In this document: positions 1-58,715 of the stretch, piece by piece | Position numbering within the stretch: position 1 is the stretch's first letter | How the letters are laid out: every line of letters begins with the position of its first letter | Sequence record: OZ346182.1 | Strand: one strand, 5' to 3' | From: a phage | DNA length: 64,000 nucleotides | Made by a program: the position numbers and the translations under genes | Notes under the pieces: generated by a model | Told to the model about the DNA's origin: nothing | Database searches by the model: none | Seen by the model: only the letters and a program-made list of their open reading frames with translations

Positions 1-629
1 AAGATTGCACAGGCAGTAAGTGACTCTACAGACCTTAACAAAATCTATCCAGTGGGTATTGTGACGTGGTTTAACAGTAATGTTAACCCTAATACAGCAC
101 TGCCTGGTCTAACTTGGACGTATCTGAACAATGGTGTTGGTAGAACTATCAGAATTGCAGCAGCAAACGGTTCAGATGTTGCTACAACTGGTGGTTCAGA
201 CTCTGTGACGTTAGCTGTTGGGAACTTGCCTTCACACACTCACAGTTTTTCTGCGACTACCTCATCGTTTGACTACGGAACAAAAAACACTAACACGACT
301 GGTGCTCACACACACACTCTGTAAGTGGCTCTACTTCATCTGCTGGTAACCACAACCATTCCATTTCGTGGATTGGTCAGAACTCTACACACTACTCTGG
401 TGGTGGTGGTGGTAAAATCGGTACAGGTCCGGGTTACACTGATGCTGCTGGTGCGCACACCCACTCTGTAAGTGGTACTGCTGGTTCTGCTGGTAACCAC
501 GCTCACAGTGTTGGTATTGGTGCTCACAGTCATACAGTTAGTGGTAACACTGGTGGTACAGGTTCTGGTTCCGCATTTAGTGTTACTAACCAGTTCTATA
601 AGTTAATGGCTTGGGTAAGAACTGCTTAA
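1..629 (+). CDS. tail fibre protein, C-terminal part (5' end outside window); reading frame changes at a (CA)5 tract near 307-317
   Basis: Frame 1 open from nt 1 to stop 322-324 with tail-collar-like motif GGSDSVTLAVGNLPSHTHSF; frame 3 continues to stop 627-629 with repeated H-x-H motifs (NHNHS, GAHTHSV, NHAHSV, AHSHTV). Confidence 0.6.
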
Positions 630-7410: not shown

Positions 7411-7944
7411 TCAACTTAGTTTTGCAAACTCTCCGTGGAGTTTAATAGCAGCTTCACAGTAAGCTTTATGGGCTTCTTCAGGTGTGTCATGGTGACCTAA
7501 AAACATCTTCTTACCTTTATAACTTATCTGTGCGACCCACTTACCAGACTTCTTCTTAAGACTTACACCCTTGTACCCAGATTTATTGGTGACCGGTTTA
7601 CCTTTATTCCAAGCACTTTGAAAATCATCTGCTTCCCTTAAGTTTACAATCCTGTTGTCAAGTGAGTCTCCGTTGATATGGTCAATGATACCTTTTGGCA
7701 TCTTGCCATACACGTAAAGCCATGCGAGTCTGTGTGCTTTATGTGCTTTCTTGTCAAAATAGATACTAACCTGTTTATGACCACTTGAATCAGTCTGGAT
7801 ATTACCTGCCACCTTTCCTGCATAATTACTGTTAAAAACACTAACAGCTCTTGATTTACCTTCTCTACGAAGCCAAGTAAAGACCCCTGTTTCGGGGTCA
7901 TAGTGCAGCAGCTCCTTTAAACGTTTTTGTAAAATTAAATCCAT
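7411..7944 (-). mobile_element. HNH homing endonuclease with AP2-like DNA-binding domain
   Basis: 177 aa; HINGDSLDNRIVNL HNH-like core and C-terminal SGYKGVS...GKWVAQISY...HHDTPEEA AP2-like; shares a 30 nt identical 5' segment with the gene at 17783. Confidence 0.75.
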
Positions 7945-8507: not shown

Positions 8508-8777
8508 CTGGTCAATACACTCGCAAGGTGTACCAGTTCTCTTATGAACTTCTCCGCATTTCTACGGAGTGTCGGACTATATCACGTAGCAGTGGTGCTA
8601 CCGTTGCACTTGGGATGGTCATTAGCTTACCACCCTACTCTACTCAGTTCATACGTTAAGTATGCTTTTCGATAGTCTCTGAACGTTCCTCTTAAGAGGC
8701 TTCGCTGCTGATTACCATATCTTTACAGACTTAGGCTTCCAGCAATTCACAACGTTTTACATGCGCCACTGACGCAT
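8508..8777 (-). ncRNA. putative group I intron interrupting DNA polymerase motif B (boundaries +/-10 nt)
   Basis: In-frame stops between exons; minus-strand elements GUUCAGAGACUAUCG (R-like) and GUGAUAUAGUCCGACA (S-like) with GACUA/UAGUC P7 pairing. Confidence 0.65.
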
Positions 8778-10944
8778 AAATGCCATTTTTGGCTTTCTTA
8801 CGACCTTTTGTAATCTCGTGGAGAAGTTCCTCATCCTGTGTCTCCCTACAACGAACAATGTCTTCTTCCTTGTTCAGACCAAAGTAAATACTATTCAGTG
8901 TATGTGCATCAGTACCTGTGTAGACTTCATAGAGGTCATTCTCAGCATCATAACGCAGATACTTGTCAGTTTCTGGGTTAAGATACTTGTCAAGATGCTT
9001 GCAGTAGTATCTACCATCATCTTGCTTAGTGAACTCAACTGACTCTTTACCCTCAGTTACCGCTTTAGTGAAGTCTTCATCACCCATAAAGTTACAAAGA
9101 AGAACTAGCTGGGCTGAGTTTTGGTCTACAGAGACAACGTTAGTACCTTCTTCACAAATCCACACCTCCCTCATAGGTGCTCCATAGACAGCAGCACCAG
9201 ACGGTACGTTTACAATACCATATTGTGTCATACGTCCAGTTGAAGTACCAAACACCATTGCACCAGCACTAAGGCGACCATCAGGACGAATCTGGTTCAA
9301 CCAACCTTTTTCATCATCTTTTGAGTTCTCAATAGTTCTACGTCGGTGCATCAAAGTATAGTACTTAGCAATCTTCTGTCCAAGCTCACCTTCAATCGTA
9401 TCATAAGATGATTCAGTAAGTTTTGGTGAAGTACGGATTAAGCAAGGCTCAAGCAAATCTGTGTATTTCTTCACAGACCAGTTATGCTCAATGTACTGGA
9501 CACCTTCATGCTCAACATAGCTCAAACCACACCGCTCAACCATTTCCTGCCACTTAGGATGCTTTGTAATCATCTTTTTATTGTCTTTGAAACGACAAAC
9601 TTTGATAGGGCGACCATCTGAGTCTTTCTTGTAATTCCAGTCATCTGGAATCCAACCAACTGATTTCAAGTAGTCTTTAACAACTGCTACCTGAGTCATA
9701 CGAGAAACTTCAAACTCAATTGGTGTATATGGTGCATCAATCAAACCTGTGTAGCGACTTGACTCAAGTTCAAAGTGGTTAACAACGTGGCTGTTATAGT
9801 ACTTCACAGTTTTGACTGTTTTTACTGGCTTCCAGTCTTTGCATTTCTTACCAATCTTTGCGTTCAACTCATTGCAAATTGCACGAGCATCCTTCATTGC
9901 TACAAAACCTTCCTTGTACTCTTCACCAGTTACAGAGTTGGTTGGTGTATAGCAATTCCTTTTTTCAATGTTAAAAATCTTTGTAGTTGGCTTACCAAAT
10001 GGTTTGATTTCGTATGTCTGCATCTCACCATTACGTACCTGCTGACGATACTTTGTCTTAGGGTACTTGGTAATTCTTTTCAGTCCATCTGCATGACCAA
10101 ATGTTTCAACATACTCATTCCAAGCTTTTGCAAACTCTTCTCCAGTGACTTTACCTTTGGTCTTAATAGTTGGAGGAAGATGTGGTTCAACCTCTGAAGC
10201 AAGCTCATTAGTCAACTTGTCAAGTTCCTTTACATGGAACTCCATAAGCTCTTTATCAGCTTTCCAACCATTAATAGCTTGTTGACTCATCCAGAAAGAT
10301 GTTTCTTTAGCTCGCATGTAGGTTTCATAAGTGTCTATGCCACACTTCTTAAGCTTGAGATACTCATTATCAAGTGCCCGTTTAGTTTTGGCGTTAATAC
10401 GGATATCTTCTACAACACGAGTGAAGATTTCTGCATTCCACACACCCCAATGTTCAATCTCTGGTTTACGAACACCAACACGAGCACCCCATGCAGCCAA
10501 GCCATGAGCACCTTTATAACCCTTTGGAGTTGGTCTATCCATCCACTGAACACGAGACTGGATAAGAGAATCCTGAAAGAAATTACTCCACGGCTTACAC
10601 TTTGGATTATCAAAGTTCCATAAATCCGGTGCAATGTGATTGAAAACCCACCAGTCATAACCTAGACCATTATGAATGCAAAGACGTTTTGCCTTTAACG
10701 CAAACTCAACACCTTCACGTAAGCCACCCTTAATGTACTTGGTATACTTGTGACCGAGGATAGGCTCATCTGTAAAGACCCATACAGGCGGCTCTTTATC
10801 GTCAGATTTATAGTCTGCGAAAGCCATTACGTGCACTTTAGTGAACTCAAGGAGTAAACCATCAGTTTCTGTATCACCAACTAAATGTAAGTTTTTAAAA
10901 TCTACGTTTTCCATTTTTACTCCCTCTAAAATCATTAACCTCAT
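8778..10944 (-). CDS. DNA polymerase (family A), exon 1 with 3'-5' exonuclease domain
   Basis: N-terminal DTETDGL exo motif; VDQNSAQLVLL motif A-like; ends RKKAKNGIY (first half of motif B) before the intervening sequence. Confidence 0.85.
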
Positions 10945-24580: not shown

Positions 24581-25777
24581 ATGAACAAAGTACAGATTAT
24601 TAAAAAGAATGGCTCACTTGAAGAACCTGATATCAAAAAAGTTTTAGCAGCAGTCACAAAGTCAGCTAACAGAGTTGGTTATAAAGAGCTTCCACCAGAT
24701 GTTACTCAAGCTCTTGAGTCAGCATTTATGAGGATTCTGGTAAAGTCCACTAAGCAGAATAATTTGCTAATTTCGGTAAATGATATTCACAGTATTGTTG
24801 AGGGTGCTTTGGCAGAAGTCAATCACGAGATTTATGAGTCTTACTCAACATATAGAAATTACCGTAAAGAGGTTGCTCAAAATTGGGATGAACTCTACCA
24901 GAAGACCAAAGATACACTCTTCTTAGGCGACCGAGAAAACGCTAATTTTGACAGCAGTTTAATTTCTACAAAAGGCTCAATTATTCGTGGTTACCTGACT
25001 AAAGAAATCTTTAAACAGTACCATTTAACACCAGAGGAACTTGAAGCCATTGAAAAAGGATTTATCTATATCCATGATTTAAGAGACCTAATTTTTGGTG
25101 GTATCAACTGTTGCCTGTTTGACATTGGTAAAGTCCTGAAAGGTGGCTTTGAAATGTCTGGCATTGAATATTGTGAACCGAAGTCTGTGCTGTCAGCCTT
25201 ACAGGTTATTGGTGATGTAGTTCTTTCAGCAACTGCACAGCAATTTGGTGGCTTTACTTTAGCAGAGATTGATAAGGTACTTGTACCGTATGCTAAGAAG
25301 TCTCTACGTTACCATGCTGAAAAAGCAACAGCTTATGGTATTCCTAAAGAACATTACCACAACTATGTCATGGAGCAGCTACAGATTGAATTAACTCAAG
25401 GTTTTCAGTCTCTTGAAATGAAGCTCAATACTGTGCCTTGTAGCCGTGGTGATTTTGCATTCACAACTTTGACATTCGGGTTACTTGACTCAGATATGTC
25501 TAATGAAGATAACCGACTGCAATACATGATTGCGAGCACTCTCCTAGATGTTCGTATGAATGGACAAGGTAAGAGCAAGAAACCTGTTGTATTCCCTAAA
25601 CTGGTTTATATTTATGACCAGAAGAGACACAATGAGAATATCTGTCAAGGCCACCTGTACAGTAAAGCTATTGAGTGTTGCTCTAAAGCTATGTATCCAG
25701 ATTTCTTAAGTGTATCTGGACATGGTGCTGTAGCAGAGGCTTTTGAGCGTTCTGGCAAGGTAATTTCCCCGATGGGT
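24581..25777 (+). CDS. nrdD: anaerobic ribonucleotide reductase NrdD, exon 1
   Basis: ATP-cone N-terminus; exon ends ...VISPMG (GGU) immediately before the intron. Confidence 0.9.
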
Positions 25778-26093
25778 TAACAAGCTCTATAGCTCATCTA
25801 AAACGTGCCTAAACAGGGAAACTCTACAGATGTAGACAATCCTGTGCTAAATGATGTACGATGTAAGAAACTATACAACATAGGAGTCTTACATGCCAAA
25901 TAACTTCGAATATGAGTTTGAATACATCTAAATGCCGAACGACTAACCGTGATGAATGTAGCGGTGTAGGGTCAAGCGACTCGAAATGGTACGCTACTTA
26001 GAAATAAGTAGAAGATATAGTCTGGACTTACTGGCGACAGTAAGCAGCTTGAATAAAGCGGGGTAAGCTTAGCGAACTTACTTGAACAACAAG
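25778..26093 (+). ncRNA. group I intron in nrdD (316 nt, no ORF)
   Basis: Exon 1 ends in U, intron ends in G; splicing restores conserved PMG-CRAFL; contains AAACAGGGAAACUCUACAGAUGUAGACAAUCCUGUGCUAAAUG (very like T4 td intron), R-like GAACGACUAA and S-like AAGAUAUAGUCU. Confidence 0.85.
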
Positions 26094-27041
26094 TGTAGAG
26101 CATTTTTATCACCATACCATAACGAACATGGTGAAGAGTTTTATGTAGGTCGTGCTAACATTGGTGCTGTATCTTTGAACTTACCAATGATTTATCAGTA
26201 CACCAAAGAGAATGGCTTAGATTTCTGGAAAGAGCTTGATAAGTACCTAGAAATGATTCGCAGCTTCCACAAGAAACGTTACGAAATGATTGCTAATATG
26301 CCAGCAAGTTCTAACCCTCTTGCATTCACACAGGGTGGTCTGTACAAAGGGAATAAGAAACCTACTGACAAGGTTGGCTGGGATATCGTGAAGTCCTTCA
26401 CAGCTTCTTTTGGGGTTACTGCGCTTGATGAGCTATCTGTTCTTGCTGAAGGTAAACGACTCCATGAAGTTGGAAGCTGTAGTTTTGCATATGATGTTCT
26501 GGCATACATTAACATGAAAACTGAAGAGTTTAAGAACGAAGATGGCTTCTTGTATGCGGTATATGGCACTCCAGCAGAATCACTTTGTGGAACTCAGTTA
26601 AAACAGTTCAGAGATATGTTTGGCGTTATTAAAGGTGTCTCTGACAAGGAATACTTTACAAACAGTTTCCATATGAATGTTGCAGCAGACATCTCACCAT
26701 TTGAGAAGCAGGACTTAGAAGAGCCATTCTTCCATATCTGTAGAGGTGGTAGAATCCAGTATGTAAGGGTAGCTAACCCAGAAAACTTAACAGCACTTAA
26801 AAGTTGTATTACAAGAGGGATGTTGAAAGGTTTCTATCAGGGGCTTAACTTTGACTTAGCAATCTGTGAACATTGTGGTAACAGACCAAAGGCTGATGTT
26901 GAAGAATGTGAGGTTTGCCATTCACATGATATCTCTGTGATTAACAGGGTGTGCGGGTACTTGTCATTCACAAAAATTAAAGGTCAGTCTCGAATGAATG
27001 ACGCTAAGATGGCAGAAATTAAGGATAGGGTTTCTATGTAA
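26094..27041 (+). CDS. nrdD: anaerobic ribonucleotide reductase NrdD, exon 2
   Basis: Begins CRAFLSPY; glycyl-radical motif RVCGYL; zinc ribbon CEHCG...CEVC. Confidence 0.9.
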   Translation, partial: CRAFLSPYHNEHGEEFYVGRANIGAVSLNLPMIYQYTKENGLDFWKELDKYLEMIRSFHKKRYEMIANMPASSNPLAFTQGGLYKGNKKPTDKVGWDIVKSFTASFGVTALDELSVLAEGKRLHEVGSCSFAYDVLAYINMKTEEFKNEDGFLYAVYGTPAESLCGTQLKQFRDMFGVIKGVSDKEYFTNSFHMNVAADISPFEKQDLEEPFFHICRGGRIQYVRVANPENLTALKSCITRGMLKGFYQGLNFDLAICEHCGNRPKADVEECEVCHSHDISVINRVCGYLSFTKIKGQSRMNDAKMAEIKDRVSM

Positions 27042-28093: not shown

Positions 28094-28579
28094 ATGAATT
28101 ACATGGAGATTAGACCATTCGATACATCTAATGGTGAAGGGGTTCGTGTAAGCCTCTTCGTAGCTGGTTGTAAGCATCACTGTGAAGGCTGCTTTAACAG
28201 GGAGTCTTGGAAGTTTAATGCTGGTAAAGTATTTACTTATGCAAACTTCTACGGCATCATTAAGTTAATGGATGATGATGCTGTCAGTGGGCTGTCAATA
28301 CTTGGTGGAGAACCTCTGGATGATAGAAATATTCAAGAGGTTACCAACATATGCAAACGTATTAAAACCGTTTACCCAGAAAAATCTATCTGGCTCTGGA
28401 CAGGTTTTCAGTTACACGAAAAAATTCACCTAGATGTGATGAAATATGTTGACGTGGTGATTGATGGTAAGTATGATTCATCTAAACCAACAGTTAAACC
28501 ATATCGTGGTTCTGATAACCAAAACCTCTGGAGAAAAGAGTATGGATGGCAAGGCGATTGTCAATGGCGAGCAGAGTGA
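28094..28579 (+). CDS. nrdG: anaerobic ribonucleotide reductase activating protein (radical SAM)
   Basis: VAGCKHHCEGCFN = CxxxCxxC radical-SAM cluster motif. Confidence 0.85.
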   Translation: MNYMEIRPFDTSNGEGVRVSLFVAGCKHHCEGCFNRESWKFNAGKVFTYANFYGIIKLMDDDAVSGLSILGGEPLDDRNIQEVTNICKRIKTVYPEKSIWLWTGFQLHEKIHLDVMKYVDVVIDGKYDSSKPTVKPYRGSDNQNLWRKEYGWQGDCQWRAE

Positions 28580-28817
28580 TTATTCTGGCAAATGGACTTA
28601 CGACATCAACAAGTTAGATGCTTGGATGATTTATACGAGAGAAAAATTTGGTGCAAGTTCATTATGTGCTCTTGCAACGATGGTGAAGAACGTTACCTTT
28701 GACATTCATGACTCAGATAAGTTTGGAGACTTCTACAGGATTCAAAACATCAGAGAAGGCATGACTCCAATTGGTATCACTGAAGAAGAACTTCATAAGT
28801 TCTGTATTAAACTTTAA
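28543..28817 (+). CDS. hypothetical protein
   Basis: Internal ATG of ORF 28461-28817 with AAAAGAG upstream. Confidence 0.3.
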
Positions 28818-29098
28818 TGAGAGAGACTAAAATGGGAATTTTAGGTAATATGAAAGCTGGCTTCTTGAAGGCACTGGCAAAAGCAGCAGCAATCATTTCT
28901 ATGACTGGAAAGCAGGTTGGTGTAGATGCTTCAGCAGTTGCACAAGTTCTTACAAGCCAAATTGAACAGCAACCTTACATCTACGTAGGCCGTGGCAAAG
29001 GTGGTAAAAAACAAGCACATCGACCAACTGGTGCAGCAGCAATTAAACGTGCAGCTAAAAAAGCTCGTAACCGTAAACGTAATAAGAAGGCTAAATAA
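28817..29098 (+). CDS. hypothetical protein with basic C-terminal tail
   Basis: 93 aa; C-terminus KRAAKKARNRKRNKKAK. Confidence 0.35.
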   Translation: MRETKMGILGNMKAGFLKALAKAAAIISMTGKQVGVDASAVAQVLTSQIEQQPYIYVGRGKGGKKQAHRPTGAAAIKRAAKKARNRKRNKKAK

Positions 29099-29100
29099 TC

Positions 29101-29421
29101 ATGAGCAAAGTTTATAACACTCGCAAATTACAGATTTTCGTACTGTGCCAGTTTATGGCTAAAGAATACAACTTCTACTATTGCGGCACAGGTTTTATTA
29201 GCGACGATGATGGTTCATACCTACCATTCAAAGAAGCTGTAAAACTCTTTAATGAAGAGAAAAGCTCTAAGAAAGATATTGAAAAGGTTAAGCTAACTTA
29301 CAGTAAGAAAGATAAGAAGATTATCTGCCTAGATAACTTTGTAAAAGTTACTGGAGAAGCAAAAGAGTTTATGGATGAGAGTGAGATTTCATTCACAAGC
29401 ATCTTGAAAGTAGCTCAGTAA
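29101..29421 (+). CDS. hypothetical protein
   Basis: 106 aa ORF. Confidence 0.35.
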   Translation: MSKVYNTRKLQIFVLCQFMAKEYNFYYCGTGFISDDDGSYLPFKEAVKLFNEEKSSKKDIEKVKLTYSKKDKKIICLDNFVKVTGEAKEFMDESEISFTSILKVAQ

Positions 29422-29433
29422 ACAGATACTATA

Positions 29434-29463
29434 AGGGAACTGTAAAGGTTCCCTTTTTATTTT
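29434..29463 (+). terminator. rho-independent terminator
   Basis: AGGGAAC-TGTAAAG-GTTCCCT-TTTTATTTT. Confidence 0.6.
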
Positions 29464-29585
29464 GGAGATGATATGTATCTGTCAAACCTAAAACGTTCTG
29501 CTGCAATGTCAGTGTTAAGACTTAGCTTTGAGGAACGTCAAGAGTTCATTGACTCCACCAATACGACCCCTCAAACTCCAATCAC

Positions 29586-29858
29586 ATGATTCTCTGGAAT
29601 CGTGAAAGTACTCGTGAAAGAGTACTATTCCGTTATTACCCACACTACACTATAGATAACCTGTATGAATGTTTTGTTGTGAAGAACACCATTGCAGTGC
29701 TCAATAAGCTTTGTAGATACACAGGTAGTCAATCCTTCACATTAGGCCACCACAAACCTGTTACAAAAGGTGGTGAACATCACTGTGCAAACTGGTTTAT
29801 TCAGACTAAAGCTGATAACCAGAAGCAAGGAGATAACCTTTTAAGTGCCCTAAGATGA
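29586..29858 (+). mobile_element. small HNH endonuclease-like protein (start uncertain, possible frameshift with upstream 38-codon ORF at 29473)
   Basis: GHHKPVTKGGEHHCANWFIQTKADNQKQGDN resembles HNH core. Confidence 0.45.
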
Positions 29859-29978
29859 CCTATGAAGAGCAAGAGAGATATATCAAAAATAATATGCCAG
29901 ATGTGCTTGACAACAACTATACAGATTTGGCAATATCTCTCCTGTTGAAGTTCGAGACAGTTTATAGGGCAACTTATA

Positions 29979-30257
29979 ATGGCTAAAGAAAAGTGGGAGA
30001 TTTTACCATTAGTCAGTGAAGGAGGTAATGGTTGTGAAATGTACATGATACGTGGTCATGTTCCAGAGCCAATTGCACTTGAGATGGTAAACAACTTTAC
30101 AGATGGTTCTTACAAAGACTTAGGCGAACCAACTGTCAAGCAACAATGGGTTAAACCTGTACCAGACAGCACAGGTAACTGTAGTGTACTTTATCACGTT
30201 GTAGACCCTGCAAAATGCAAATCTGCAATGGCAGTAACAAACGTAACTTTTGATTGA
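29979..30257 (+). CDS. hypothetical protein
   Basis: 92 aa ORF. Confidence 0.35.
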   Translation: MAKEKWEILPLVSEGGNGCEMYMIRGHVPEPIALEMVNNFTDGSYKDLGEPTVKQQWVKPVPDSTGNCSVLYHVVDPAKCKSAMAVTNVTFD

Positions 30258-31150: not shown

Positions 31151-31199
31151 AACTTTATATGGGCTTGAAAGCCCCACTTTGAGAGAGAGAGATTAAAAG

Positions 31200-49285: not shown

Positions 49286-49370
49286 GTTAAGAAGGATAGA
49301 TATTTTGTTCACATATGCTGGTGACCCAGAGGTTGGGACAACCGATGGAATTTTATAAAAATTAAAAAGC
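49286..49370. repeat. right arm of ~85 bp inverted repeat
   Basis: Reverse complement of 48126-48210 apart from one T-run length difference. Confidence 0.75.
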
Positions 49371-58631: not shown

Positions 58632-58708
58632 CTCTGTTTAGCTCAGCTTGGTAGAGCGTTCCGTTTGGGGCGGTAAGGCCGGAGGTTCAAGTCCTCCAAC
58701 AGAGACCA
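58632..58708 (+). tRNA. tRNA-Pro (anticodon UGG)
   Basis: Cloverleaf with GGTTCAAGTCC T-arm, anticodon loop TTTGGGG, CCA encoded. Confidence 0.7.
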
Positions 58709-58715
58709 AATTAAT

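Follow-up and report, generated by a model that had tools for sequence, protein, structure and literature searches.

Cryo-EM of the Felixounavirus Bas63 (JohannRWettstein) identified gp27, the orthologue of the gene studied here, as the long tail fibre (LTF) (PMC12609058). The tip of this fibre is composed of a collar, a needle of HxH motifs, and a head, and the chain doubles back to give a six-stranded needle (PMC12609058). The T4 gp37 tip (PDB 2XGF) is homologous by sequence. Repeats that set the frame of such genes are described for Campylobacter phages, whose receptor-binding genes contain hypermutable polyG tracts according to the account in PMC10877375 (citing Sorensen et al. 2021, Cell Rep 35:109214). 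These tracts are long and conserved, and both ON and OFF lengths are found inside a single stock as well as among stocks. In laboratory lambda, compared with Ur-lambda, the side tail fibre gene stf is split by a frameshift (PMC12617516); this lesion has been verified experimentally and the fibre is dispensable.

Identity of the gene and layout of its two frames

The window, by which we mean the whole stretch of 64,000 nucleotides analysed, is a segment of a Felixounavirus (FelixO1-like, Ounavirinae) with ca. 95–97% identity to many Escherichia, Salmonella, and Shigella phages. Its positions 1–629 form the 3′ end of an LTF gene, the 5′ end of which is located outside the window. The homologous stretch of phages fjerdesal, tootiki, and Barry lies at the end of a single 2352-nt (783-aa) coding sequence annotated as 'tail fibers protein', and the identity to fjerdesal, Barry, and allfine is 94–100%. 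The gene order of the relatives is STF gene, LTF gene, small ORF, and holin gene, followed by td and frd on the opposite strand; past the LTF gene, the order in the window (small ORF, holin, thymidylate synthase, dihydrofolate reductase) is that of fjerdesal, tootiki, and Barry. Pfam assigns gp37_trimer, gp37_C, and Gp10_C to the fjerdesal LTF, residues 652–762 of which match the receptor-binding tip of T4 gp37 (PDB 2XGF) with an E value of 7e-16. Once repaired as described below, the window translation contains six HxH motifs with a head segment between motifs 3 and 4. The repeated HxH motifs and the homology to T4 gp37 indicate a tip of the collar–needle–head type. Judged by sequence homology and synteny, the gene is assigned to the Felixounavirus LTF/T4 gp37-tip family, the integrity of its ORF excepted. 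Unlike gp27 of Bas63 and the other members, it has in the window record a frame that is broken inside HxH motif 2.

The original prediction had located a frame change in the tail-fibre gene at the CA run 307–317, and all of its coordinates hold. The features of the region are the following.

1–321, + strand: frame-1 part of the LTF gene, with the shaft end, the collar region, and HxH motifs 1 (SHTHS) and 2 (AHTH)
291–293, + strand: TAA, the last upstream stop in frame 3, which bounds the interval 294–321
294–629, + strand: frame-3 continuation of the LTF gene, with HxH motif 3, the small head domain (ISWIGQNSTHYSGGGGGKIGTGPGYT), the returning-strand HxH motifs 4–6, and the C-terminus
307–317, + strand: (CA)5C run CACACACACAC, site of the frame change, one CA (2 nt) longer than in the closest in-frame alleles, which have (CA)4C
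322–324, + strand: premature TAA in frame 1, two codons past the CA run

With the fjerdesal LTF as tblastn query, residues 576–682 align to positions 1–321 in frame 1, and residues 677–783 align to positions 306–626 in frame 3, the latter with 94.4% identity and zero stops. Frame 1 ends with GNLPSHTHSFSATTSSFDYGTKNTNTTGAHTHTL (NTTGAHTHTL), followed by the TAA at 322–324. Frame 3 is open from 294 to the TAA at 627–629; it reads HDWCSHTHSVSGSTSSAGNHNHS and, via SHTHSVSGSTSSAGNHNHSISWIGQ, runs to the terminal KLMAWVRTA. The interval 294–321 is the only one in which a change of frame could yield a full-length product. Across the junction, the His-x-His motif is read as H-T-H in both frames, as had been pointed out from the sequence. 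The junction peptide of the full-length LTF is TGAHTHSVSGSTSSAGNHNHSISWIGQ, and the C-terminus as written is TGAHTHTL.

The two ORF-like segments in different frames might be taken for two separate genes, one for the fibre shaft and one for a tip or adhesin. All homologues have one gene here, which agrees with the placing of the frame change inside a single tail-fibre gene in the original prediction. The distal segment has no ribosome-binding context, and its frame contains no ATG, GTG, or TTG start before a Met five codons from the end; the program-made ORF list has no frame-3 ORF for it. Two genes are almost certainly not encoded here, and an independent distal gene or re-initiation is ruled out by a frame 3 that lacks a start codon.

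The break occurs inside the second of the six HxH motifs of the T4-gp37-like needle. The product as written (ca. 684 aa) ends with GAHTHTL, is ca. 100 residues short, and lacks the head domain together with HxH motifs 3–6, of which the last three belong to the returning strands. By analogy with the T4 and Bas63 structures, neither the six-stranded needle nor the receptor-binding head would be able to form after this truncation. The 107 distal codons themselves contain no stop and are 94% identical in amino acids to fjerdesal; 8 synonymous and 4–5 non-synonymous differences separate them from fjerdesal and Barry. The undamaged distal frame means that decay has either not taken place or not had time to do so.

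One CA unit found in the window alone

Alignments with homologues place a 2-nt insertion exactly inside the CA run, which is (CA)5C in the window and (CA)4C in fjerdesal and Barry. Hence, it is no accident that the frame breaks at the repeat, as one cause accounts for both. One CA unit has been gained, which is in line with the slipped-strand gain or loss that had been named as the mechanism. When one unit is deleted, the frame is continuous to the stop at 627–629 and matches the 3′ end of the 783-aa gene of the relatives. (CA)5C occurs a single time in the 64-kb window; dinucleotide shuffles gave an expectation of 0.06, and at least one occurrence in 5 of 100 shuffles.

All 34 phage records that fully cover a 70-nt query spanning the run align to it over 68 nt, and the repaired 68-mer aligns without gaps to the same 34 records, with 68/68 identity (100%) to allfine. 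Two IMG/VR contigs are in frame; of the metagenome pattern matches, two are true homologues and likewise in frame. The holin of the window also occurs on ten contigs from ENA, NCBI, or Logan, in each of which the fibre gene is called as one ORF of 785–856 aa, and the insertion is absent from all seven of them whose DNA aligned over the tract. In total, the CA insertion was found in 0 of ca. 50 homologues, comprising the 34 phage records and the contigs from IMG/VR, metagenomes, ENA, and Logan. Contigs of IMG/VR, metagenomes, and genomes were also scanned with a pattern that left the tract length free, and neither a (CA)5 allele nor a copy of the window came up. Exact-protein look-ups of four neighbouring proteins found relatives only (nataliec and Logan ERR6002105); neither the window's td protein nor its 171-aa protein is on record. 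A single uninterrupted ORF is thus missing in the window record only, where the 2-nt insertion at 307–317 leads to the TAA at 322–324.

Over bases 1–306, the nucleotide sequence is that of fjerdesal and Barry, and over the 77 bases after the run (309–385) it is that of allfine and tootiki. The best-matching donor switches within 229–328, with fjerdesal/Barry before and allfine/tootiki after. This mosaic junction, which could stem from recombination in nature or from a chimeric assembly, extends across the CA run and may be connected with the gain of the unit. We also looked for a compensating indel and found none in the window, given the identity of bases 1–306 to fjerdesal and a stop two codons past the run.

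The His-x-His peptide is conserved among relatives and its DNA is not. The relatives write the motif as CAC-GCT-CAC, CAC-ACT-CAC, CAC-ACC-CAC, CAT-ACT-CAC, or CAT-ACC-CAT, and many homologues are without any CA run. The run exists because the His-Thr-His codons happen to be CAC-ACA-CAC. By this sequence comparison, it is a by-product of one codon choice and not a selected element, and since many homologues lack it, no conserved slippery site or contingency tract is present at this position.

As with the polyG tracts of Campylobacter phages, a simple repeat is located within a receptor-binding protein gene and its length sets the frame. By that precedent, slipped-strand mispairing at the CA run could toggle the receptor-binding tip ON and OFF, one unit being sufficient to switch the frame. 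Compared with the polyG tracts, however, the CA run is short, interrupted by synonymous and Thr/Ala codon variants in many relatives, and out of frame in one record. Its ON state has four units (five here), and dinucleotide repeats at simple-sequence contingency loci need more than four units to become hypermutable. Recurrent ON and OFF lengths were not seen, as the ca. 50 sequences include a single OFF allele. Moreover, the tract is located 87% into the gene, so that the OFF state would be a long tipless fibre and not a clean switch. Phase variation is therefore very unlikely.

Recoding was considered in the interval 294–321. Ribosomes might shift by +2 (equivalent to −1) on CAC-ACA-CAC-AC, either programmed or leaky, as a P-site tRNA-His on CAC 313–315 can re-pair perfectly with CAC 315–317 and continue as AHTH-SVSG to a full-length fibre. 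The phage encodes tRNA-His(GTG) and tRNA-Thr(TGT), and the RNA downstream (318–420) folds modestly better than its shuffles (z = −2.29; 5 of 200 shuffles were as stable). This downstream sequence, and hence the fold, is nevertheless common to the in-frame relatives, and the two-frame layout occurs in no homologue, all of which have a single ORF, so nothing has selected for recoding. There is no X_XXY_YYZ heptamer in 294–321, which leaves only the non-canonical +2 re-pairing on CAC/ACA. Hops of +2 are rare and inefficient. A virion needs 18 LTF chains, as inferred from six trimeric fibres (PMC12609058), and an inefficient hop would have to supply them. A canonical −1 shift at the textbook heptamer A_AAA_AAC (282–288) was rejected because it runs directly into the frame-3 TAA at 291–293. 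Recoding of this kind is highly improbable. Of the three readings in the original prediction, the indel is the one that the homologues support; phase variation and a programmed frameshift found no such support, and even taken together we regard them as improbable.

Error in the record or mutation in the phage

The lesion is very probably a non-programmed, one-off indel, whether an artefact or a real mutation. A short (CA)4C run would have gained one CA by a single, unselected 2-nt insertion. A sequencing or assembly indel had been among the readings offered, and it stands; a one-off mutation of the phage, which had not been named separately, is supported as well.

For an error of sequencing, polishing, or assembly in the deposited consensus, we see about an even chance. 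The error may have arisen at the junction of two co-assembled strain variants, and the phage would then really make a normal single-chain LTF of ca. 783 aa with a T4-gp37-like collar–needle–head tip. Consensus sequences from 454, Ion Torrent, and Nanopore have indel errors at homopolymers and short tandem repeats, and known errors appear as isolated length errors at short repeats in otherwise conserved ORFs, as here. An artefact is favoured because the insertion is unique among the ca. 50 homologues, because the distal 107-codon frame is intact, because the lost part is the functional tip and a chain truncated after motif 2 would be unable to build the needle, and because the window has two more unique deletions, both in C runs and of the kind that errors produce. 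We tentatively infer that the lesion sits in the record rather than in the phage DNA.

The two C-run deletions were found when every annotated fjerdesal protein of the region was compared with the window, known structural differences being set aside. Besides the LTF gene, one further gene is broken, the homologue of fjerdesal_64/bas63_0077 (171 aa, VOG1451, hypothetical). It occupies 29473–29986, where two 1-nt deletions unique to the window, at 29557 (CCC>CC) and 29851 (CCCC>CCC), divide it among three frames. The best 40 of 217 relatives are all longer than the window here and have the gene intact, and by their annotation Bas63 and MET-P1-301 contain an intact 516-nt coding sequence. The independent Logan contig ERR6002105 is identical to the window over 28271–29767 except for the deleted C of the CCC run at 29556/29557. 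The ATGs with which the fragments of the gene begin overlap the stops before them (29586 and 29855).

Repeat-length lesions that break conserved ORFs of the window are consequently located at 316, 29557, and 29851. In a three-way comparison, 12 clean indels are unique to the window, three of them breaking a coding sequence, and 12 are unique to fjerdesal, all of them intergenic or in frame by annotated CDS coordinates. As a control, the fjerdesal proteins were compared with the tootiki genome, which showed no frame-broken genes. That 64 kb should contain three coding lesions, all of them unselected and at short repeats, suggests consensus errors.

Other observations count against an artefact. 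The gain of a whole dinucleotide unit is a classic product of real polymerase slippage; it is atypical for Illumina or flow-chemistry error, and less typical of consensus errors than a homopolymer miscount. A second dinucleotide run, the intergenic (GA)6 at 31181–31192 just upstream of the nicotinamide phosphoribosyltransferase start, is truly polymorphic in length among relatives. It is (GA)4 in fjerdesal and tootiki and (GA)5 in one Logan contig, so real dinucleotide slippage occurs in the lineage. The argument from an error-prone record is also weakened, as two of the three frameshifts are in one gene of a non-essential region; by a rough estimate, two of three random errors would be placed in one 516-nt gene with a probability of ca. 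2%. Intergenic unique indels are no commoner in the window than in fjerdesal. Unique indels as a gauge of sequence quality hence give a partial answer, with three CDS-breaking lesions on one side, and normal intergenic counts and the clustering of two lesions on the other. The account of Bas63 in PMC11482910 describes the region with the 171-aa gene as uniformly non-essential, and the clustering fits real pseudogenisation.

A genuine null mutation is accordingly a serious candidate, to which we assign somewhat less than an even chance. Slippage would have added the CA in the phage DNA, be it that of a lab stock, a minority variant in the consensus, or an environmental genome, and the LTF would lack its receptor-binding head. 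At a dinucleotide run, mutation is expected to proceed by slippage, the length polymorphism at 31181–31192 is a real instance of it in the lineage, and the two frameshifts clustered in one gene resemble real decay. The second fibre, STF (382 aa, Gp10_C), has the same type of HxH tip and could in principle sustain adsorption, and Bas63 particles fall into classes with zero to six fibres attached (PMC12609058). The stf gene of lambda provides a precedent. There as here, a fibre gene is split by one small indel, its counterparts in wild relatives are intact, and the distal part is recognisable in another frame. The lambda lesion is known from experiment, whereas that of the LTF gene is known from a sequence record. 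Against a null mutation, 0 of the ca. 50 relatives share the insertion and the distal 107 codons have suffered no further damage. Without its needle and head, the LTF should no longer function, and such a phage would be selected against if growth on its propagation host requires the LTF. On essentiality in Bas63, the statements in PMC11482910 are at the level of regions, with no value for the LTF gene.

Were (CA)5 real and the phage infectious, infection would have to proceed via low-level +2 re-pairing on CAC-ACA-CAC-AC or by STF alone, a combination that we consider very doubtful. If STF alone sufficed, the phage would be a natural LTF-tipless Felixounavirus with altered host range. More generally, a real lesion would mean that the LTF receptor-binding tip has been knocked out in nature, in a genus used in Salmonella and E. 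coli typing and biocontrol, and could show whether the short fibre alone supports infection, which would be a modest and unsurprising finding. The biology of the lesion is ordinary. For annotation, we recommend that the two ORF fragments be merged into one LTF gene and marked as a suspected frameshift, and that neither two proteins nor a recoding or phase-variation site be recorded here.

Other features of the window

Past the LTF gene, a 65-aa ORF (709–906), to which Pfam assigns Phage_PM2_Gpl in relatives, shares 4 nt with the start of the holin gene. It is missing or truncated in the annotation of several GenBank records. An apparent 1-nt deletion at 900 was considered as a further lesion and rejected, as it is natural variation with respect to fjerdesal and common to three contigs (L010, L018, and L019).

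Two genes of the window are interrupted by group I introns (Rfam RF00028). The first intron (61.7 bits; 8552–8834, − strand) splits the DNA polymerase gene into exons at ca. 10935–8773 and 8505–7951, which are followed by an ORF resembling an HNH-type homing endonuclease (7423–7938, − strand). The polymerase gene has the same split layout in tootiki and is uninterrupted in fjerdesal. The second intron (54.6 bits; 25663–26044, + strand) is in the anaerobic ribonucleotide reductase gene nrdD, with exons at ca. 24581–25789 and 26094–27038. It is absent in fjerdesal and tootiki, and recalls the nrdD intron of T4.

An 87-nt inverted repeat with 99% identity (48128–48214 and 49281–49367) flanks a repeat-rich non-coding region of 1066 nt, located at the switch between divergent gene blocks. 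An inner 32-nt inverted repeat (48443–48474 and 48635–48666) is made by two 23-nt insertions that are absent in fjerdesal. Toward the end of the window, 25 tRNA genes including tRNA-His(GTG) and tRNA-Thr(TGT) are located at 58632–63556, an array typical of Felixounavirus. The small fjerdesal coding sequence 'hyp15', which overlaps tRNAs, looks spurious.
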